Sequence record: NC_019724.1
DNA from: Escherichia phage HK578
Reading direction: 5' to 3' (one strand)
Length of the DNA: 43,741 nucleotides
The translations under genes and the position numbers were made by a program. Below, piece by piece: positions 1 through 43,741 of the stretch (the stretch's first letter is position 1; the number at the start of each line of letters is the position of its first letter). The notes under the pieces are model-generated. The model saw only the letters and a list, made by a program, of their open reading frames with translations, was not told the DNA's origin and did no database searches.

Positions 1-573
1 ATGCACAAAAGGGCTTATATCATGGCAGAAATCAAAGTTAAGGGCCGTCGCGCCAAACTGGACGGACGAGTGGCAGTCACCCCGCGCCGTAAACCAGGCG
101 AGCAAACCGAGCATACCAATCTCGGACCTGAAATCGAGTACGGAAAGCGCCGTAAAGGCGGCAAATGTGGACGCCCTACTGACTACCGATCCGTTTACTG
201 CGACCAGCTTCGCCGCTATTTTGCCGATGCCGACGCCTGGCAGGTCAACTACTCCGATAAAGGCGCTGCGCAAGTAATCCCCCGCAACAAAATGCCAACC
301 TTCGGTCGATTTGCCGCGGAAATCGGCGTGGGCGTAGCTTGCCTGTATCGCTGGGCGCGTGCGCATGAGGAGTTCGCCGAGGCGATGGCGGACGCTATGG
401 AGTTGCAGAAAACCTTCCTGATGGAAGCTGGCGGCGTAACCATCGCTGCGGGCTTCGCCACATTCCTGCTTAAAGCAAACCACGGCGTCCGCGACGATGT
501 GCCGCTGGATGATGACGAAGATGATAACGGCGACGTCGTTGTCGAACCTACCGGCAAAGGCCAGGGCGAATAA
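1..573 (+). CDS. terminase small subunit
   Basis: 190-aa ORF with HTH-like segment TFGRFAAEIGVGVACLYRWARAHEEF and acidic C-terminus; stop overlaps TerL start (TAATG). ORF begins at window edge; in-frame ATG at 22 has a better SD (AAAGGG) and may be the true start. Confidence 0.65.
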   Translation: MHKRAYIMAEIKVKGRRAKLDGRVAVTPRRKPGEQTEHTNLGPEIEYGKRRKGGKCGRPTDYRSVYCDQLRRYFADADAWQVNYSDKGAAQVIPRNKMPTFGRFAAEIGVGVACLYRWARAHEEFAEAMADAMELQKTFLMEAGGVTIAAGFATFLLKANHGVRDDVPLDDDEDDNGDVVVEPTGKGQGE

Positions 574-3490: not shown

Positions 3491-4577
3491 TCAATATATG
3501 GCGGATCGAATGATTCGCCGTCACATCTTCACCCAGCGCCTGAGCAATGACCAGGCGCGAAGGGTGCTGTCCATGTGGGAGAAGTTCCGGCCTACATTAC
3601 TGGGGGAGCTGACCGAGTTGCTTGATGGCAAATCGTCAATGAATAACCGGGCACTTTCCACCCTGCTAACGCAAATCGACAAGACCGTAAAAACGGAACT
3701 GCGCACCGAGTTTAAGGCGTTGGCTGAAAGCCTTCAGGAGTTTGCAGACACCGAGGCCGATTATCTCGCCGACACATTGACGGCAGCGGTCCAGCCGGTG
3801 GTCGCCGTACCCGCGGTCGAGGTAGTTGGCGTAGTGACCGGTGCGCAGATCGCAGCGACTGCGATGAAAAACCCGTTCCTGGGAAATACCATGATGCAAT
3901 GGCCCGACTCACTTTCTGAGTGGACCAGGACGCAGATCGGTAATCAGGTGCGGGCGGGATTCATCCAGGGCAAGCCAACGATGGAAATTATCGCGGACGT
4001 GAGGCGCGCGCTAGGCGGTCGTAGTGCGCAAGCCATCTCAAGCGTTGTTAAGTCCGCAGTCAACCACTATGCGGCGACCGCCCGCGAACTAATGGTAAAA
4101 GCAAATGACGATATTCTCGAAGGTCGCCAATGGTTATCTACATTGGACACGCATACTTCTCCCATGTGCCAGCTACGCGATCGCCTGTTTTATCCGGTTG
4201 ATGTTACCCCCGACACCAAAGGAAAGCGCGGCGGGAAAGTGGTGGCTGGGTCACAATATGGCGCTGGTCCGGGCAAGCTGCATTATTGTTGCCGGTCTAC
4301 GGAGACGTGGAAGGTTAAAGGCATGGAAGATTGGCCCAGTGGTAAGCGTCCGGCACTGAAGGCTGACGCGGGTCGATTGCTGAGTGAGCAGGTCGACGCG
4401 CAGACCGATTTCTTCTCATGGGTGCAGCGCCAGCCGCGCCATATCCTGGAAGAATTATACGGAGTGCAACGCGCAGACCAGATTATGCGAGGCGTGAAAG
4501 TGCCGAAGATGTTCACTGATACCGGCGAACTAATGACTATTGCACAGCTTAAAAACCGGGGGTTATGGCGTGATTAA
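3474..4577 (+). CDS. head morphogenesis / minor capsid protein
   Basis: 367 aa, overlaps portal 3' end; position after portal as in Mu F / SPP1 gp7-like genes; family assignment from position only. Confidence 0.55.
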   Translation: MAKTINQYMADRMIRRHIFTQRLSNDQARRVLSMWEKFRPTLLGELTELLDGKSSMNNRALSTLLTQIDKTVKTELRTEFKALAESLQEFADTEADYLADTLTAAVQPVVAVPAVEVVGVVTGAQIAATAMKNPFLGNTMMQWPDSLSEWTRTQIGNQVRAGFIQGKPTMEIIADVRRALGGRSAQAISSVVKSAVNHYAATARELMVKANDDILEGRQWLSTLDTHTSPMCQLRDRLFYPVDVTPDTKGKRGGKVVAGSQYGAGPGKLHYCCRSTETWKVKGMEDWPSGKRPALKADAGRLLSEQVDAQTDFFSWVQRQPRHILEELYGVQRADQIMRGVKVPKMFTDTGELMTIAQLKNRGLWRD

Positions 4578-4899
4578 ATATGCAGCTATTGGACTGATTA
4601 TCGGTCTGGTGGTAGGATTCTGGCTAGGTGACTCCTATCGCACTGGCGTAGTGGCGGAGGCGGCGCAAGAAGCGCAAGCCCAAGCCCAACGGCAGCAAAC
4701 TAAAGTTGTTGAGCGCTCCGTGCAGGCCGAACAGGCACGCGACGTGGAATACCGGACTATCACGAAAGAGGTTGTTAAATATGTTACGCGCCCTAACCGC
4801 CCTGATTGTAGTTTTGATGCTGAGCGCGTGCGGATCAAGCAACGTGCCGTTGATGCCGCTAACGGAGTCGGCACTGCGACCGCCGTGCAAGTTCGATAA
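4570..4899 (+). CDS. putative i-spanin (Rz-like)
   Basis: GTG start after GGGGG SD; N-terminal TM helix IKYAAIGLIIGLVVGFWLG followed by charged helical periplasmic domain (AEAAQEAQAQAQRQQ...); overlapped by +1-frame lipoprotein ORF. Longer TTG-start version begins at 4540. Confidence 0.5.
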   Translation: MIKYAAIGLIIGLVVGFWLGDSYRTGVVAEAAQEAQAQAQRQQTKVVERSVQAEQARDVEYRTITKEVVKYVTRPNRPDCSFDAERVRIKQRAVDAANGVGTATAVQVR

Positions 4900-5011
4900 C
4901 CCGTCTGCGGACCCCGACGAAGATTTGATGATTGACGTGAAAAATATGGAATGCGGGGCTAAGCTAAGGGCGCAGGTGCTGGAGTTGCAGCAAATAATTA
5001 AGGGGCCGTAA
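4781..5011 (+). CDS. putative o-spanin (Rz1-like lipoprotein)
   Basis: ATG 4781 with SD AAGAGG; signal peptide MLRALTALIVVLMLSAC with lipobox LSAC; mature part short, Pro-rich, with Cys; in +1 frame overlapping 3' end of 4570..4899. Confidence 0.55.
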   Translation: MLRALTALIVVLMLSACGSSNVPLMPLTESALRPPCKFDNPSADPDEDLMIDVKNMECGAKLRAQVLELQQIIKGP

Positions 5012-5077: not shown

Positions 5078-5485
5078 TTAAAGTGCTTCAAGAATCTCGT
5101 AAAACTTATTCGCCAGCGCCTGGCGACGTTCGAATTTCTCAGTGATAACCAATTCAGGGCGGTTAAATCTCTTTGCGTGTATGTTCCAATTGTGGATTTC
5201 CGTCTCCATTATTTTCTTACGGTTATAGTCGGTGTTTTTGATGCTAAATTCCTTGATTGCGTTGTTAAGAAAATCAGTCATATACTCAATGTCGGATATC
5301 GTAACTTCGAACGTGCGGGCTTCGATTACGCTATTGGTGCGAAGTACGACGACGCCGCCGTGGTAGGTGTCGACTACCATATACTTGTAAGTCACCCCGT
5401 CCCACTCCGGATCGAAAGGGCGACCAAATACGTCGTCGGCTTTCCAGACTTTCAGGTACGGTGTTTCTTTGATTAATGTTGGCAT
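5078..5485 (-). CDS. hypothetical protein (moron)
   Basis: 135-aa ORF from ATG 5485 (MPTLIKETPYLK...) with SD GAAGGAAAA; opposite strand to flanking head genes; appears AT-richer than neighbours by eye. Confidence 0.6.
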   Translation of the reverse strand: MPTLIKETPYLKVWKADDVFGRPFDPEWDGVTYKYMVVDTYHGGVVVLRTNSVIEARTFEVTISDIEYMTDFLNNAIKEFSIKNTDYNRKKIMETEIHNWNIHAKRFNRPELVITEKFERRQALANKFYEILEAL

Positions 5486-5520
5486 CTTGTTTTCCTTCAT
5501 ATCTCTGTTGGTGTGCAACC

Positions 5521-5550
5521 AATATACTGCAACCAATATCCGCAATGCAA
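5521..5550 (-). promoter_or_regulatory. sigma70-like promoter for 5078..5485
   Basis: minus strand TTGCAT-18 nt-TATATT; spacer and -10 overlap two TGCAACCAAT copies (5514-5523, 5528-5537). Confidence 0.4.
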
Positions 5551-5639
5551 GCGAATTTTGCGATTATTTTTATCGCTGATAATATTAAGGCGTGAAGTCA
5601 AGCGGGTGGCCCGCTTTGCCACAATCCCAGGGGGATAGC

Positions 5640-6344
5640 ATGAAACTTACTAAAGCAGAATATGACGCGTTGCCGGAAGGTATGAAGGCGCTTTTTGTTG
5701 CCGATGGTGACGGGTATAAATCAACGTTCATGACCGCCGAAGAAGTACAGGCGGAGATCAAGGGTCTGAAAGACAACAACGCGAAGCTGGTTAGCGAGAA
5801 GAAAGCAGAAGCCGAACGTCGCGCCGAAGCCGAGCGCCTTGCGAAAGAGAAAGAGGAAGCCGCCGCGCGCAAAAATGGCGACCTCGAAGCGATCGATAAG
5901 TCCTGGAAAGATAAGTTCGCAAAACATGAAGCGGACACATCGGGGAAAATCGAAGCCTACCGCAAGCAGATCCACGATCTCACCATCGGCAGCGCTGCCA
6001 AAGACCTGGCGTCGAAGCTGTTCGGTAAGAATGCGGGCATCATGCAACGCCACGTAATGGACCGCCTGACGCTGGAAGACGGCGAAGACGGCAGCTTGAA
6101 AGTGCGTGTCTTGCAGGATGGCAAACCGTCCGCGCTGACTATGGAAGAGCTTGAAAAAGAGTTCCGTAATAACGCCGATTTTGCATCCGTCCTGGCTGGC
6201 ACGCCAGCCGGTGGCGCTCCTAGCAAACCGACGCAGGTTGTCGAAGATGTGAAGTCGAAAATCACTATGGGCCATAGCTTCGGCATCACTGACCTTACGA
6301 AACAGGCAGGTGATATCATCGCTAAGATGGGCGACGACGAGTAA
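5640..6344 (+). CDS. scaffolding protein
   Basis: ATG 5640 with SD AGGGGGA; acidic, Ala/Glu/Lys-rich coiled-coil-like sequence (AEERRAEAERLAKEKEEAAARK) immediately upstream of major capsid gene. Confidence 0.6.
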   Translation: MKLTKAEYDALPEGMKALFVADGDGYKSTFMTAEEVQAEIKGLKDNNAKLVSEKKAEAERRAEAERLAKEKEEAAARKNGDLEAIDKSWKDKFAKHEADTSGKIEAYRKQIHDLTIGSAAKDLASKLFGKNAGIMQRHVMDRLTLEDGEDGSLKVRVLQDGKPSALTMEELEKEFRNNADFASVLAGTPAGGAPSKPTQVVEDVKSKITMGHSFGITDLTKQAGDIIAKMGDDE

Positions 6345-6441: not shown

Positions 6442-7542
6442 ATGTCTTTAACAGTGTTCCAGCGTAAACTCGTTACCGCGGTTACGCAAATGATCCCCGA
6501 CAACCTGAACGTTTTCAACGCCGCCGCCAATGGCGCTGTTGTTCTCGGTACTGGTGAAGTGCTGAAGGATGTTGTAGAGAAAATGTCCGTAGGCTTGATC
6601 GCCAACCTTGTTACCGACCGTAACGCCTACGCCCCTGTCGGTACTCCGGCAACCGCTAAAGTGCTGGCGCGTATGCTGACCAACTCGGTTAACCTGTCCG
6701 CGAAAGTGGGTCCGGTGGCAATCACTAAGGCTATGATGGCTAAAATCGAAACCAACGTTAACAGCGTTGCGGCTGAGATTGCGGCACAGGCTACTCAAGC
6801 GATTTTGCTGCACTACCTAAAAGCGGGTATCGGTGCAGGTAAAGCGGCGATCGAAAGCAACGCAGCGGCAAAATACACCCAACCGGCGCGCGTTGACGGC
6901 GTTGGCGGTCGTACCTTCCCTACCCTGGCAGACTTCCCGCTGGCTGCTTCTAAGTTCGGCGATCAGGCGTCTTTGATTAAGTCATGGTTTATGGACGGCG
7001 TTACCTGGGCAAACTTCATTGCGTACCAGGCACTCCCTTCCGCTGAACAGGTATTCGCAATTGGCGATCTCCAGGTAATGGGTGATGGTCTGGGCCGTCG
7101 CTTCATTATCTCCGATGCCGCTGCCGATGCTATGGGCGCAGGCAACATGCTGGGCCTGGTCCCTGGCGCGGTTGCAGTTACCACCAACGGCCTCGATATG
7201 CTGGCGCAGGAGAAAGGCGGTAACGAGAACATTGAGCGCTGGTGGCAGGGCGAGTTCGACTTCAACGTGGCTGTTAAGGGATATCGTCTGAAGGCGTCCG
7301 CTCGTACTCCGATCGAAGGCGTTCGCTCGTTCAAACTGGACGACATCACCACTTCCGCTAACTGGGAACTGGACCAGGGCCAGGTAGACAACGCACCGGC
7401 AACCGTGCAGGATGTTGGCGCCGTTGGTGATGGCGATACTAAAGGCCGTCGTAAGACCCAGGCCGCACAGGCAGTGCCTACTCGTCACATCAAGGAAACG
7501 GCGGGCGTACTGGTTACGCTGACTGCGACCACAGCGTCCTAA
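6442..7542 (+). CDS. major capsid protein
   Basis: 366 aa, SD AAAGGA, follows scaffold gene and is followed by a strong terminator; assignment by position and size. Confidence 0.65.
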   Translation: MSLTVFQRKLVTAVTQMIPDNLNVFNAAANGAVVLGTGEVLKDVVEKMSVGLIANLVTDRNAYAPVGTPATAKVLARMLTNSVNLSAKVGPVAITKAMMAKIETNVNSVAAEIAAQATQAILLHYLKAGIGAGKAAIESNAAAKYTQPARVDGVGGRTFPTLADFPLAASKFGDQASLIKSWFMDGVTWANFIAYQALPSAEQVFAIGDLQVMGDGLGRRFIISDAAADAMGAGNMLGLVPGAVAVTTNGLDMLAQEKGGNENIERWWQGEFDFNVAVKGYRLKASARTPIEGVRSFKLDDITTSANWELDQGQVDNAPATVQDVGAVGDGDTKGRRKTQAAQAVPTRHIKETAGVLVTLTATTAS

Positions 7543-7557
7543 CAGGCGCACATCCCA

Positions 7558-7586
7558 AAGGGGCGGGCTTATGCCCGCCTTTTTTA
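7558..7586 (+). terminator. intrinsic terminator after capsid gene
   Basis: GGGCGGGC-ttat-GCCCGCC followed by TTTTTT. Confidence 0.7.
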
Positions 7587-7600
7587 TAGGAGTGAATGAA

Positions 7601-9637: not shown

Positions 9638-10363
9638 ATGGGTTATCAACTTCCTAACGGGTCCAGCGTCCAGATTGGGTCCGTATTGGGTGCAGGCATC
9701 GCTGTTACGGCAGCGACCAACGCCGCGGCGTCAATCTCCGACCTTACGCAAGGTTGCGTAATTACCTGCGCGGAGTCTCACGGTCTGGTTGTTGGCGACG
9801 TTGTTATGTTCACTAAAACCCCGTGGGTCCGTGCGCTGAACCGCGCGTTCATCGTTGGTAAAGTGTCCGGGAACGACGTGACGCTGGCGCGCTTCGATAC
9901 TCAAGACGCCACCAAATACCCGACCGGTGCTTTCGGCGTAGGCACACCAGGCGAAGTGGTGAAAGTGTCGAATTTTATCGACTTCCCGTTTATCACCAAC
10001 GTTGCCGTGTCTGGTGGCGACCAGCAGACGACTACCTTCCAGCCGTTGCAGGTGAATACCGCGATCAGTCTGAACACCACGAAAAACCCGTTGGTACAGA
10101 CCTACACTTTCACCCATGACGAAGAAGACCCGATCCGCCCAATCCTGGAAGACCTGGACGACACACAGAAAACCACTGTGATTAAGTTCACTAACCCAGC
10201 GGCAGCAAGCGGCAAAGGTGAAATCCGCATTTACCCGGCGAAGGTGTCTTTCCGGAAGATTCCATCGGCTGAAGTAAACAACGTGGAGACGGTGGAGTCC
10301 ACGCTGACCATGCAATCCGATATGGTTATTTACCGTAAGGATCTGGTTGAGGCGCTGTCGTAA
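9638..10363 (+). CDS. major tail protein
   Basis: 241 aa, SD AGGAG, followed by strong terminator and then the chaperone/tape-measure genes (conserved siphovirus order). Confidence 0.65.
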   Translation: MGYQLPNGSSVQIGSVLGAGIAVTAATNAAASISDLTQGCVITCAESHGLVVGDVVMFTKTPWVRALNRAFIVGKVSGNDVTLARFDTQDATKYPTGAFGVGTPGEVVKVSNFIDFPFITNVAVSGGDQQTTTFQPLQVNTAISLNTTKNPLVQTYTFTHDEEDPIRPILEDLDDTQKTTVIKFTNPAAASGKGEIRIYPAKVSFRKIPSAEVNNVETVESTLTMQSDMVIYRKDLVEALS

Positions 10364-10393: not shown

Positions 10394-10416
10394 GGGGCCA
10401 GTACGGCCCCTTTTTT
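10394..10416 (+). terminator. intrinsic terminator after major tail gene
   Basis: GGGGCC-agtac-GGCCCC followed by TTTTTT. Confidence 0.7.
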
Positions 10417-10432
10417 ATTGGAGAATACTACA

Positions 10433-14146: not shown

Positions 14147-14180
14147 TAAAATGGCCCTCACTACAACGTGGGGGCTTTTT

Positions 14181-14780
14181 ATGTCACAAGGTACAATCAC
14201 ACTAACGAAAGGAAGTAAGACCGTCACGGGCGCGGGAACGGCGTTCCTTAGCGAGATCGGTAAGGTACTCGTATTCGCCCGCATCGACGGCAACGACTAC
14301 ACCGGCAAAATTGCTGCATTCAACTCGAACACGGTCATTACTCTGAAAGATAACTGGGCTGGGCCAACGAAATCCGGTGCGGCATATGAGCTAATCGAAG
14401 CACACGACCCGCGATCAAACGAATGGCCATATTACTGGCACATGCAATTGCAGGGCGGTGGCGACGTGCAGTTAGCTTTCCGGTCCGAGGAATTGCAATT
14501 CGGTAATGGCTACGGGCAGAACATCGCGGACGGCCCGAACGCCGAAACTAAACAGTTCCCCGTGCAATTCGTCGGGCTGACTACTGACAAGTGGTGTAAC
14601 CCTAAGCTGGTTTACAACTTCCTTCGCGGGCACTTCGTCAAGCCGTTTGTCGTCACCGCGCCGGATGGAGAAACAGGTTTGTTCGTGGTTGAGCGTTCGA
14701 GCTTGTCGTACACGGACGACGGGCACTACACGGCAACGGTATCCGCCACCCTTAAAACAGCTATTGGATTCGTAAGATGA
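14181..14780 (+). CDS. minor tail protein (M-like)
   Basis: ATG 14181 (MSQGTITLTKGSK...) after SD GTGGGGG; first gene after tape measure in lambda-like order M-L-K-I-J. Confidence 0.55.
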   Translation: MSQGTITLTKGSKTVTGAGTAFLSEIGKVLVFARIDGNDYTGKIAAFNSNTVITLKDNWAGPTKSGAAYELIEAHDPRSNEWPYYWHMQLQGGGDVQLAFRSEELQFGNGYGQNIADGPNAETKQFPVQFVGLTTDKWCNPKLVYNFLRGHFVKPFVVTAPDGETGLFVVERSSLSYTDDGHYTATVSATLKTAIGFVR

Positions 14781-35367: not shown

Positions 35368-35396
35368 ATATTAGATTGGTTGCAGAAGGGAGTCAA
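35368..35396 (-). promoter_or_regulatory. early leftward sigma70-like promoter
   Basis: minus strand TTGACT-17 nt-TAATAT; ATTGGTTGCA (35375-35384) lies in the spacer. Confidence 0.5.
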
Positions 35397-35407
35397 CAAC
35401 TAATTTC

Positions 35408-35441
35408 AAAAAAAAAGCGCCGAGGCAAAATGCAACGGCGC
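35408..35441 (-). terminator. minus-strand intrinsic terminator in divergent control region
   Basis: minus strand GCGCCG-13-nt loop-CGGCGC followed by nine T; would stop antisense transcription entering the leftward promoter. Confidence 0.45.
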
Positions 35442-35512
35442 TAACCAATAAGAGACAATGAGACGGGAATTATTATTACACGCGCGCGCGCCCGTTTCAA
35501 TATCCAAAGGAG

Positions 35513-35541
35513 TTGACACTGTTTATTTTTAAGCATAGTAT
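35513..35541 (+). promoter_or_regulatory. early rightward sigma70 promoter
   Basis: TTGACA-17 nt-TAGTAT, 33 nt upstream of ATG 35575. Confidence 0.55.
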
Positions 35542-35574
35542 GCGACCCGCACCCCGAACACACGAGACACAGCA

Positions 35575-36003
35575 ATGAGCACAAACGAGACCTTAAATCG
35601 CTGGAACCATAAGAAATGGCCCCACCAAATTAACCGCGCCACCGAGGATGATAATACCATCGCTTTCGGCGATATGGACGCGGACCCTATGACCCCTGAG
35701 CAAATAGCCGCCGATGTGCTGTCAATGGACCGACATACGGCTTCGGAAATAATCGTTGCTCTGATAAACGAAATAAGCGGCAGCTATAACGAACTGAATG
35801 ACCTGTACGCGGAGCTTGACCTGTTGAAAGGTGGCGCTATCGCAGCGGTGCGTAAATCCGAAGAGGCAGCACGCGAGATGGCTATCGCCCGCGAGAAATA
35901 TATGCCTGTCGTTAAGCGCCTGCGTGCGGAAGGCTTGTCATGGAATCAGATCGCCGAGATGACTGGAATCAACCGTTCTACAATCCGCCAGTGGGCTAAA
36001 TGA
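35575..36003 (+). CDS. putative HTH DNA-binding regulator
   Basis: 142 aa; C-terminal helix-turn-helix LSWNQIAEMTGINRSTIRQWAK; first gene downstream of the rightward promoter. Confidence 0.55.
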   Translation: MSTNETLNRWNHKKWPHQINRATEDDNTIAFGDMDADPMTPEQIAADVLSMDRHTASEIIVALINEISGSYNELNDLYAELDLLKGGAIAAVRKSEEAAREMAIAREKYMPVVKRLRAEGLSWNQIAEMTGINRSTIRQWAK

Positions 36004-40166: not shown

Positions 40167-40303
40167 GTGCGGCTATCCGTGATATGCTTCAGCACAACCG
40201 CTTTGAGATAGGAGGGCGAGTATTTCGCAATTACTTCGTGGCGCGTGCATGGGCGCGCCATATTGGCAAACCGGAATGGGCAATACGATGTTACACGATG
40301 TGA
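40163..40303 (+). CDS. small hypothetical protein (not in ORF track)
   Basis: 46 codons (MSAAIRDMLQHNRFEIGGRVFRNYF...) starting in ATGA overlap with upstream stop; weak. Confidence 0.3.
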   Translation: MSAAIRDMLQHNRFEIGGRVFRNYFVARAWARHIGKPEWAIRCYTM

Positions 40304-40575
40304 TTTATTGGTTTGGTTTGATCTGCGGGCTGTGCCTGCTTACCGCGGTGCTGTTGGGCGTTCTGATGTTCGTAGTATGGCCCGCTGTGGAAGCCGCCAG
40401 CATTACCCGCATGACGTTCGAGATCTACAAGCGCCGTGGAATCACGGAGCACCCGACAAGGTTGCGCATGTGGTGGCTGTGGTATCGGGATATGATAGGC
40501 GGTAGAACATTCGAAGCCGTCCGATCATCCGGGTGGGAATGGAAAGGCGTCGGCAAGTGGTCCATTTTCGATTAA
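40288..40575 (+). CDS. small membrane protein
   Basis: 95 aa from ATG 40288 (MLHDVIYWFGLICGLCLLTAVLLGVLMFVVW...); one clear TM helix; start uncertain (alternative 40249). Confidence 0.4.
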   Translation: MLHDVIYWFGLICGLCLLTAVLLGVLMFVVWPAVEAASITRMTFEIYKRRGITEHPTRLRMWWLWYRDMIGGRTFEAVRSSGWEWKGVGKWSIFD

Positions 40576-40594
40576 ATATGCAAGCGTGATATAG

Positions 40595-40627
40595 TCCCAG
40601 TGAGCTAAAACTTACTGGGACTTTTTT
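40595..40627 (+). terminator. terminator-like hairpin abutting the holin start codon
   Basis: TCCCAGT-12-nt loop-ACTGGGA followed by CTTTTTT, then ATG 40628 with no SD. Confidence 0.45.
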
Positions 40628-40918
40628 ATGGATAAGCTAAACGAGTGGCTATTCGCCCTGGCATGTCTGGCGGGTGGCTTCGTAGGCGCACGCCTTCATG
40701 GTGAGGCTACGAAAGGGCCGCTAAACTTCGTTTTGTATGTCGTAGTTGGCTTCCTGTGTGCCATATTTGGCGCACCGGCTATTGCCGAGTGGGCTGGTTT
40801 GTCGGGTGAGCGCACTGTCGCCGGTTTGGGCTTCGTAACCGCGATTTTCTGGATGCCAATCGCCGACCGGATCAGGGAGACTATTGCGTCGTTCCGACTT
40901 CCGGGGGGTGTAAAATGA
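40628..40918 (+). CDS. putative holin
   Basis: 96 aa with ~3 predicted TM segments and charged C-terminus, two genes upstream of the lysozyme gene. Confidence 0.55.
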   Translation: MDKLNEWLFALACLAGGFVGARLHGEATKGPLNFVLYVVVGFLCAIFGAPAIAEWAGLSGERTVAGLGFVTAIFWMPIADRIRETIASFRLPGGVK

Positions 40919-41160
40919 TTATCACCGTCCTGTTGTTTGTTATCATAGGGGCTTCGTCCCTGTTTAACGTGTATGCGCCGTCCGTCCAGGATGGCATCTT
41001 GGGCCGGGTGCTGTATCTGTTAACGGCAATGGTCTGTATTATCGGATTGCTGCAAACAGGAGACGTATCAGATACCACCTGGACCGCGTTAATCTGGCTG
41101 TTTGCATTGCGCACCCTGCGTAATGCTGTTTTGAATGGGGTAAAACATGCGATTCAGTGA
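40915..41160 (+). CDS. small membrane protein (second holin or antiholin-like)
   Basis: 81 aa, ~3 hydrophobic segments, SD GGGGGGTG, overlaps both neighbours. Confidence 0.5.
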   Translation: MIITVLLFVIIGASSLFNVYAPSVQDGILGRVLYLLTAMVCIIGLLQTGDVSDTTWTALIWLFALRTLRNAVLNGVKHAIQ

Positions 41161-41638
41161 TAACGGTCTACGATTTACGGCAGCATGGGAGACTTTCAGC
41201 CCAGTGCCGTATTTCGCGACTAAGAAAGAGCAGGCCCGCGGCCTGTACACCTGGGGTTATGGTCATACTGGCACTAATCCGCCTCGAAGCATTACCCGCG
41301 AGGAAGCGCTGGAACTGCTCAAGCGCGATGTGGCGTATGCCGAGGACTGGGTGAACAAATACGCGCATAAGAGCATTAACCAGGCGCAATTCGACGCGCT
41401 GGTGGACCTGGTAATCAATGCCGGTCCGGGGCCGATCGTACCGGATGACGTCGCGAATGATTTCGATGATGCGGTGCGACTGGGAGACTGGGCGAAGGTC
41501 CGTGCTACGCTGCCGCAGTTCCGAAAACAAGGCGGTGAAGTGCTTAAGGGTCTGGTGCGCCGTGCAATCGGCAGACAGGCGCTATTCGATGGTAAGCAGT
41601 GGGACGTTGCCGAGCGAATCGGTCGTAACGCTGCATAA
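41147..41638 (+). CDS. endolysin (GH24 lysozyme)
   Basis: 163 aa; catalytic-region pattern WETFSPVPYF...YTWGYGHTG and INQAQFDALVDLVINAG resembling lambda R / T4 e-type lysozymes. Confidence 0.85.
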   Translation: MRFSDNGLRFTAAWETFSPVPYFATKKEQARGLYTWGYGHTGTNPPRSITREEALELLKRDVAYAEDWVNKYAHKSINQAQFDALVDLVINAGPGPIVPDDVANDFDDAVRLGDWAKVRATLPQFRKQGGEVLKGLVRRAIGRQALFDGKQWDVAERIGRNAA

Positions 41639-42062: not shown

Positions 42063-42088
42063 AAGCCCGGTTAATTCCGGGCTTTTTA
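42063..42088 (+). terminator. intrinsic terminator
   Basis: AAGCCCGG-ttaatt-CCGGGCTT followed by TTTT. Confidence 0.7.
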
Positions 42089-43652: not shown

Positions 43653-43678
43653 AGCCCGCCGATTTGGTGGGCTTTTTT
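43653..43678 (+). terminator. intrinsic terminator
   Basis: AGCCCGCC-gattt-GGTGGGCT followed by TTTTTT. Confidence 0.7.
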
Positions 43679-43741
43679 GTGCCTGTTATAATCCCCCTTA
43701 GATGGCAGGGCCGTCTCCTATGTTGCCGATGGTCGGCGCAT

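Follow-up and report, generated by a model that had tools for sequence, protein, structure and literature searches.

In phage Mu, the Shine-Dalgarno (SD) sequence and the start codon of the toxic late gene mom lie within a hairpin that is opened by the RNA-binding activator Com, and the holin gene S of lambda, which has a leader of its own, lies around 200 nt downstream of the site where the late promoter and Q-dependent antitermination act. In T4, the long early transcripts of genes e, soc, 49 and I-TevI pair the SD sequence and/or the AUG in a helix, which in the case of the lysozyme gene e cuts synthesis about 100-fold, and late promoters situated inside the structure give a translatable RNA (PMC3014915). 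For lambda S, an upstream stem-loop (nt -21 to -7) has been described that controls the access of ribosomes to the GGGGG SD sequence and affects the time of lysis (bioRxiv 10.1101/2025.05.14.654169). The present analysis deals with a hairpin of Escherichia phage HK578 (NC_019724.1), whose 43,741 nt, hereafter the window, are numbered from the first letter of one strand and represent a complete or near-complete Dhillonvirus genome (HK578/SSL-2009a-like virulent siphophages of E. coli). The hairpin (40593-40622, + strand) stands between the early rightward genes and the lysis cassette, directly before the start codon of a putative holin gene. Our preferred reading, which we regard as probable rather than secure, is that it is bifunctional and insulates the lysis cassette both as an intrinsic terminator and as a block on holin translation. 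As such, it is a well-conserved new example of a known regulatory principle and not a new kind of system.

An earlier note on this DNA had reported a terminator-like hairpin adjoining the holin ATG, and its coordinates proved exact: TCCCAGT at 40595-40601, a spacer of 12 nt, ACTGGGA at 40614-40620, CTTTTTT at 40621-40627 and the ATG at 40628-40630. The helix exceeds that description, with 12 base pairs (bp), of which six are G-C and one is a G.U, and a loop of 6 nt. Its 5' arm, AGTCCCAGTGAG (40593-40604), is C-rich, mimics an anti-SD sequence and has no variable column in 25 distinct Dhillonvirus sequences; within the hairpin, variation among relatives is confined to positions 40605 and 40607 of the loop CTAAAA (40605-40610); and the 3' arm, CTTACTGGGACT (40611-40622), holds a weak SD-like GGGA at 40617-40620. 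A U-tract of five T (40623-40627; six if T40622 is counted) then abuts the start codon, the tail TTTTTATG having six T among the 8 nt after the stem; the length of the tract differs among relatives and reaches T8 after the GGGAC of the 3' arm. Further out on the same strand, CGUGA at 40585-40589 is predicted to pair with UUAUG at 40626-40630, in the minimum-energy as well as in the centroid structure, and the resulting outer helix of 5 bp would draw the start codon into pairing.

RNA folding, which the earlier note had suggested, gave -19.3 kcal/mol for the hairpin alone. A region of 66 nt reached -24.1 kcal/mol, compared with -9.85 +/- 2.68 kcal/mol for dinucleotide shuffles (z = -5.32; none of 200 was as stable), and of the terminator-like sites that scans of the whole window listed, this one has the longest stem. 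The sequence features of an intrinsic terminator are present, namely a G+C-based stem and a short loop, with lengths inside the usual ranges of about 5-14 bp and 3-8 nt, a U-rich tract and the end of a co-oriented operon upstream: the stop codon of the open reading frame (ORF) 40249-40575 precedes the hairpin by 18 nt, and only 52 nt separate it from the holin start codon. Since the hairpin already carries a predicted-terminator annotation in two related genomes, PTXU06 and WFI, the terminator prediction itself is not new. Chance or artefact as the origin of the hairpin is ruled out by the shuffles together with the conservation described below.

Two other candidate identities were also considered and discarded. 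The whole window gave no gathering-level match in Rfam 15, and the best sub-threshold match at the hairpin (40577-40629), to the cyanobacterial small RNA NsiR1 (29.3 bits versus a threshold of 39, E = 6e-4), almost certainly reflects only the shape of a hairpin with a U-tail. As a possible alternative partner of the 5' arm, such as an anti-terminator structure would require, inspection by eye found only a 5-nt TGGGA about 55 nt upstream, which is unused in the minimum-energy fold of the 130-nt region in the close relative L020.

The earlier note had held that the holin gene has no SD sequence, so that its message would need both readthrough of the hairpin and SD-less initiation. The first half of that requirement stands in a modified form, since an RNA encoding the holin must either read through the hairpin or start within it, given that the hairpin abuts the holin start. 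As for the second half, a canonical SD sequence is indeed absent, but the gene is not SD-less, because the weak GGGA is located 7 nt before the ATG, inside the 3' arm. When the annotated starts of phage GeorgBuechner were mapped onto the window and the energy of the duplex with the anti-SD sequence was calculated for 54 genes, the holin gene scored -3.9 kcal/mol versus a median of -6.05 kcal/mol, which places it among the weaker SDs. Among the same 54 genes, its region from -35 to +20 forms the most stable start-region fold (-19.4 versus a median of -8.8 kcal/mol), and in a read-through RNA of 160 nt the predicted probability of being unpaired is 0.000 for the GGGA (mean) and 0.056 for the AUG. 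Translation of the holin from some other start can be rejected: ATG 40628 is the only usable one, with an in-frame TGA at 40601 and no other in-frame ATG, GTG or TTG before Met76, and the N-terminus MDK(L/F) is common to the holin and its Kagunavirus homologues.

Judging from the sequence, a polymerase arriving from the early rightward block would terminate at the 12-bp stem and the U-run, leaving most transcripts to end at or just before the holin start codon. In the RNA that does read through, folding and the comparison of lineages suggest that the hairpin and the outer helix would keep the GGGA and the AUG paired, in which state 30S subunits would seldom load and early RNA would give little or no holin. 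Holin could then be obtained by route (a), from rare read-through RNA by breathing of the hairpin, possibly helped by the U-rich spacer, or by route (b), from an RNA that starts around 40602, driven by the extended -10-like sequence TGATATAGT, and lacks the anti-SD arm; either route would result in a low, insulated rate of holin synthesis. The hairpin thus probably keeps early transcription from yielding holin too soon. Opening of the main stem by a ribosome terminating on the upstream ORF is unlikely, because its stop codon lies 18 nt before the stem and, given the ribosome footprint, a terminating ribosome at that distance would reach only the outer helix.

When compared with the systems introduced above, the locus resembles T4 gene e in that early transcription comes from upstream of a lysis gene and that, by prediction, read-through RNA has both the SD-like element and the AUG in pairing. 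A -10-like element, a candidate promoter, lies where transcripts starting from it would lose the 5' strand of the helix. In contrast, T4 employs gp55-type late promoters (TATAAATA), whereas the candidate here is a σ70 extended -10 element without a -35 box; TATAAATA does not occur within 40560-40630, and no σ-like gene is annotated in the related genome GeorgBuechner. The T4 structure, moreover, is not also an intrinsic terminator, and the gene masked here is a holin gene instead of an endolysin gene. With regard to structured holin starts, which the earlier note had called loosely analogous, the likeness to lambda S is closer than loose where SD masking is concerned: in lambda a stem-loop just upstream of the holin start sequesters a G-run SD, the same is predicted here for the SD-like element, and relatives of HK578 carry GGGGGA or GGGGA in the corresponding arm. 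The analogy fails for the dual-start motif of lambda, which is absent. Lambda S partitions its product between Met1 (antiholin) and Met3 (holin), while the HK578 gene has a single start, MDKLNEW, with no Met-Lys-Met, and a separate second holin-like gene (40915-41160) in place of the dual start. In addition, the stem of lambda S is much shorter and is not a terminator, and the two holins show no relation in sequence, to the extent tested (no Pfam match).

A terminator at a phage module boundary is ordinary bacterial and phage architecture, and the hairpin shares with such terminators, of which lambda tR' is an example, a stem, a short loop and a U-run directly before the lysis genes. Unlike tR', it runs into the start codon and holds the SD-like element. 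No Q-like antiterminator or other regulator was recognized by Pfam and PHROGs among ten neighbouring ORFs, the upstream ones being of unknown function, although a novel antiterminator could escape these searches. The placing of SD and start codon within a hairpin also recalls Mu mom, but unlike in that system no candidate activator or binding site was identified here.

Conservation provides the main support for a function of the whole element. Its 71 nt were found in 155 phage records, in 148 of them at 95% identity or more, compared with only 80-95% identity for the 2.6 kb around it. Among the 25 distinct Dhillonvirus sequences, the 52-nt spacer has only four variable columns, two in the loop and two just past the upstream stop codon; no column varies in the arms and the U-run and two of six vary in the loop, compared with 32% of the columns in the holin coding sequence. 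The hairpin is under strong purifying selection.

Beyond the genus, the holin family phrog_2359 was detected by tblastn in 286 phage records, and the loci compared came from phage records, IMG/VR, metagenomes and assemblies. Hairpins abutting the holin start are also present in four further lineages (Kagunavirus, two metagenomic types and KW1E-like phages), so that the suggestion of the earlier note that the hairpin may gate holin translation gains comparative support: on sequence and predicted structure, their homologous holin genes have at the same position a hairpin with an SD-like G-run in its 3' arm. Starting from the Dhillonvirus arrangement of the window (AGTCCCAGTGAG, CTTACTGGGACT, T5, ATG), the L033/Ioannina type (holin identity of 70%) has the arms AG(T)CCCCAGTGAG and CTTACTGGGGCT followed by T5 (T4 in Ioannina) and ATG, its stem also being written AG(T)CCCCAG/CTGGGGCT among the complementary pairs. 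The L071 type (51%) has ATCCCCCGTG and CACGGGGGAT, then TTTATT and TTG, and Kagunavirus (46%) has ATCCTCCAG, a loop of 22 nt and CTGGAGGAT, then TCATC and TTG. The KW1E-like group contributes three variants: one with a holin identity of around 35%, with TCCCCGGA and TTCGGGGA before T7-8 and ATG; a second (L180) with GCCCCGGTAA and TTATCGGGGT before TTTTTTCT and ATG; and a third (L183) with ATCCCCAAA and TTTGGGGAT before TTTTTTCATC and ATG. Further searches were made for wider sampling: a narrower alignment used as metagenome query returned the same lineages, single-protein scans with the L071 and KW1E types each returned only the query itself, and a profile search with contig look-ups contributed three KW1E-type variants as well as one lineage in which the terminator stands apart. 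The family had no match in 185,579 bacterial and archaeal genomes, which fits virulent phages.

The stem sequences diverge between these lineages, but their complementarity is kept, and every variant folds as a continuous helix. A structure-anchored comparison, made by hand with individually folded hairpins aligned from the base of the stem, identified two-sided pair changes between lineages from G-C to U-A, U-A to C-G, C-G to U-A, A-U to C-G and G-C to A-U. In all seven variants, a C-run in the 5' arm faces a G-run in the 3' arm (GGGAC, GGGGC, GGGGGA, GGAGGA, GGGGA, GGGGU), and in the Kagunavirus phage Snoke the depositors marked the GGAGG of the 3' arm as the ribosome-binding site of the holin. 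In none of the five lineages does the predicted probability of an unpaired SD in a long RNA exceed 0.008. Region z-scores were -4.8, -6.2, -3.4/-5.2 and -1.9 in the other hairpin-bearing lineages, compared with -1.3, +0.6 and -1.2 in homologues without this design. Covariance-model scores are higher for the + strand than for the - strand at every site, which, together with the G.U pairs, argues for an RNA read from the + strand and not for a DNA palindrome.

The two proposed activities are distributed differently across the lineages. A U-run comes after the stem of Dhillonvirus, of the L033 and L071 types and of every KW1E variant, whereas the Kagunavirus hairpin, which has a canonical GGAGGA in its 3' arm, is followed by TCATCTTG, without a U-tract, and was not called by the terminator scan. 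Because Kagunavirus keeps the hairpin and a canonical SD without the U-run, masking of the translation start emerges as the universal feature. Conversely, in MED16 and the L185 type a canonical terminator stands by itself 50-60 nt before the holin gene, whose SD is free, and a terminator before the lysis cassette is thus a recurrent theme. Homologues of the Erwinia phage RF1 type and of the Wc4-1 type have neither feature at the holin start. The Kagunavirus holin homologue (L016-L018, L035-L075; locus around 1456-1503) combines a rare TTG start with the masked GGAGGA, and the RP180 record has a GTG start annotated instead, seven codons downstream. In the lineage of Salmonella phage LSPA1 (L059), changes in the loop of this hairpin lengthen the stem to about 13 bp (-21.1 kcal/mol).

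A number of observations weigh against the proposal of a terminator combined with a translational block. GGGA is a poor SD, and the distance from the G-run to the start, which is 6-8 nt in six variants, amounts to 11 nt in L183; for both reasons, the SD role of the G-run is something that we infer from sequence. The KW1E-type region is only weakly more stable than its shuffles (z = -1.9). Covariation rests on some five to seven lineage-level variants, since the element barely varies within each genus, and a formal count on the model-fitted alignment, with 77.7% of cells paired, found just one pair with both sides changed. That count carries little information, as the arms do not stay in register from one lineage to the next: MAFFT alignments misregister them, and the covariance model built on these alignments left the misregister unmended. 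The covariation score on the same register-shifted, model-fitted alignment was 0.251 versus 0.195 in shuffles, with none of 500 as high. Finally, the eventual expression of the lysis genes is left with two candidate routes, read-through or a nested promoter, and no published maps of 5' or 3' ends for Dhillonvirus or Kagunavirus were found in the literature, where the only transcriptome encountered was an RNA-seq study of Kagunavirus K1B4 with timing at the level of genes.

One rival explanation is a plain intrinsic terminator, whose overlap with the start would be the by-product of a short spacer, the holin being initiated independently of an SD on the U-rich leader of read-through RNA. Every terminator sequence feature is present, PTXU06 and WFI carry the hairpin as an annotated terminator, the U-tract occurs in most lineages, MED16 and the L185 type have separate terminators before the holin, and GGGA is weak. 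We nevertheless consider this explanation unlikely, as the homologous Kagunavirus hairpin with its canonical GGAGGA and without a U-tract is not terminator-like, the G-run sits on the 3' arm in seven of seven variants with SD-like spacing in six, the outer helix takes in the start codon, and other terminators of the genome have a separate SD after the U-run. If, on the other hand, no appreciable termination took place in vivo, the hairpin would be a pure translational attenuator that tunes the holin within a single transcript running from the early to the lysis genes. No other role is possible for the Kagunavirus version, and SD masking is common to all lineages; pure attenuation is, however, hard to reconcile with the 5-8 U after the stem in every Dhillonvirus variant, which masking does not need, or with the U-rich tails of the L071 type and the KW1E group, and we hold it to be rather improbable. 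A near-perfect inverted repeat in a regulatory spacer might also be a DNA palindrome serving as operator for a dimeric regulator. Yet what is conserved across lineages is complementarity and not sequence, the G.U pairs are A-C mismatches on the other strand, the covariance-model scores favour the + strand at every site, and loop length differs widely, being 6-7 nt where the loop is short (L033 has 3 nt when its extended fold is considered) and reaching 22 nt in the Kagunavirus hairpin, all of which leaves an operator very improbable indeed.

A further explanation deals with the expression of the holin and does not conflict with an insulating hairpin: in a bypass of the T4 gene e type, a candidate internal promoter, the extended -10-like TGATATAGT (40587-40595, + strand, overlapping the base of the 5' arm), would yield a hairpin-free RNA as the true holin mRNA. 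TGNTANNNT is located directly 5' of the stem or overlaps it, a TAnnnT hexamer adjoins the C-run in all variants (TATAGT, TATCCT, TAATAT, TACTAT, TAACAT), the base that varies in Kagunavirus corresponds to the N of TGN, and TAT 40590-40592, although the predicted fold leaves it unpaired, does not vary in any lineage. For hypothetical RNAs starting 7 nt past the -10 element, the predicted probability of an unpaired SD rises from at most 0.008 to 0.17-0.76, and T4 late promoters within the inhibitory hairpin of gene e are a precedent (PMC3014915). The exact 12-nt TGNTATANTCCC has two sites in the window (0.03 expected; none of 100 shuffles reaches two), a post hoc statistic as the pattern was defined after both sites had been seen; the second copy, TGTTATAATCCC at 43684, lies 11 nt past terminator T3, ahead of the terminase gene, and is kept in GeorgBuechner. 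Against the bypass, the -35 match is not convincing (two or three of six positions), the consensus promoter scan makes no call here, for want of a -35 box, or in relatives, the best -10 hexamer lies in a register that differs among lineages by 3 nt, pairing with the start codon accounts equally well for part of the conserved flank (CGUGA), TGNTANNNT is not enriched genome-wide (63 sites versus 56 expected), and a constitutive σ70 promoter offers no obvious late timing. Weighing both sides, we consider the bypass possible but doubtful. A more ambitious version, which we put forward with similar reserve, is a nested module of terminator, promoter and ribosome-binding site, in which the 5' arm would be at once anti-SD and discriminator/initial region of TGATATAGTCCC, only internally started RNA would be translatable, and TGnTATAnTCCC adjoining a terminator would, at 43684, likewise serve as promoter of the packaging and structural genes, the design being conserved in Dhillonvirus, Kagunavirus and at least three unclassified coliphage lineages.

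Returning to the genome as a whole, the hairpin sits at the junction between the replication-side genes and the holin-holin-endolysin genes. The first 23.5 kb or so carry the packaging, head and tail genes on the + strand, replication genes extend on the - strand to about 35.4 kb, and a rightward block runs from a divergent promoter region through a helicase-primase gene and small ORFs to 40575. Its last gene (40249-40575, + strand; phrog_2531, function unknown), the last on the early, replication side, starts in relatives at an ATG equivalent to 40276. The best σ70-like promoter of this block, TTGACA-17-TAGTAT (35513-35541, + strand), in the divergent intergenic region 35400-35575, probably gives rise to the transcripts arriving at the hairpin. 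It forms part of a divergent promoter cluster (35368-35541) between the leftward replication genes and the rightward block, which on the - strand includes TTGAAA-17-AATAAT (with TG) and TTGACT-17-TAATAT; the sites of this cluster are the best σ70 matches of the window (9-10 of 12 hexamer positions). Within 2.6 kb around the hairpin, 151 phage records match at 80-95% identity and none reaches 95%.

On the 3' side of the hairpin follow, in order, two holin-like genes, the endolysin gene, a gene for an Ig-domain protein and a terminator. The first lysis gene (40628-40918, + strand) encodes the putative holin of 96 amino acids (phrog_2359 'holin', E = 9.5e-32), which is annotated as holin in relatives; its product has no match in Pfam, and the Kagunavirus homologue has three transmembrane domains according to its record. 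The start of the second holin-like gene (40915-41160, + strand) overlaps the holin stop in ATGA, and its ATG 40915 is preceded by a strong SD, GGGGGG (-10.7 kcal/mol). Owing to this overlap and this SD, the second gene may be coupled in translation and yet be far better initiated than the masked first one. The endolysin gene (41147-41638, + strand; PF00959) comes next, and a terminator-like hairpin at 42063-42084, called on both strands and annotated as terminator in PTXU06, closes the lysis and Ig-domain block; it is followed by a metallophosphatase-like gene (labelled DNA repair exonuclease in PHROGs), a terminator at 43653-43673 and the terminase gene at position 1. By the mapped GeorgBuechner annotation, the i-spanin and o-spanin genes (starts at 4570 and 4781; 4570-5011) fall within the head genes; on the circular map they follow the holin-endolysin cassette at a distance of about 8 kb (around 36 kb apart in window coordinates), and the lysis functions are therefore divided between two transcription units. 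A good candidate for an extended -10 promoter, TTGCGA-16-(TG)TAATAT at 5577-5585, is found between the single leftward gene (5078-5545) and the head gene at 5640.

Other hairpins of the genome help to place that of the holin. The terminator-like hairpins at 7561-7576, after the major capsid gene, and 10394-10410, after the major tail gene, are both followed by a normal SD after the U-run, and burial of the SD in the holin stem is thus a choice rather than a consequence of general compaction. The capsid gene in question spans 6442-7542 and the tail gene 9638-10363; in the regions that follow them (7561-7600 and 10394-10432), the SDs of the next genes are AGGAG and GGAG, and the two hairpins look like classical partial terminators that set the ratios of structural proteins. 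A second hairpin of the same design as that of the holin was found at 14153-14176 (+ strand), GGCCCTCAC-tacaac-GTGGGGGCT-TTTT-ATG 14181 (z = -3.0), where the SD of a minor tail gene after the tape measure gene is buried. Its start-region fold of -18.1 kcal/mol is the second most stable of the 54 genes, an A-tract (14147-14152) could form pairs with both the U-run and the first two bases of the AUG at 14181, and the hairpin is kept in GeorgBuechner with a different loop. At 43653-43697, terminator T3 (AGCCCGCCGATTTGGTGGGCT followed by T6) is succeeded, 5 nt on, by a perfect extended -10 element, TGTTATAAT, and a C-run, with a TTGgtg at -35 distance falling inside the T3 hairpin. This site is likely the promoter for the terminase and structural genes from window position 1; it is kept in GeorgBuechner and has the pattern TGNTATANTCCC in common with the holin site.

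For annotation and engineering, the hairpin is of practical relevance. Annotators mark it as a terminator only, or not at all, and engineers who move or replace lysis cassettes, or insert payloads before the holin gene, would unknowingly change both termination and holin translation. Were the nested promoter true, it would extend the T4 gene e principle to σ70-dependent siphophages and provide a compact natural part that unites terminator, promoter and masked ribosome-binding site; the nested module, if true, would be an insulated lysis clock for the phage. The timing of lysis is a central trait of phage fitness, fixed by the rate of holin synthesis. Dhillonvirus and Kagunavirus, which together make up most of the 286 records with this holin family, belong to a large and therapeutically popular group of virulent coliphages, and the element suggests a way in which this group uncouples the holin from strong early transcription, by a proposed mechanism that would need only some 50 nt and the machinery of the host.

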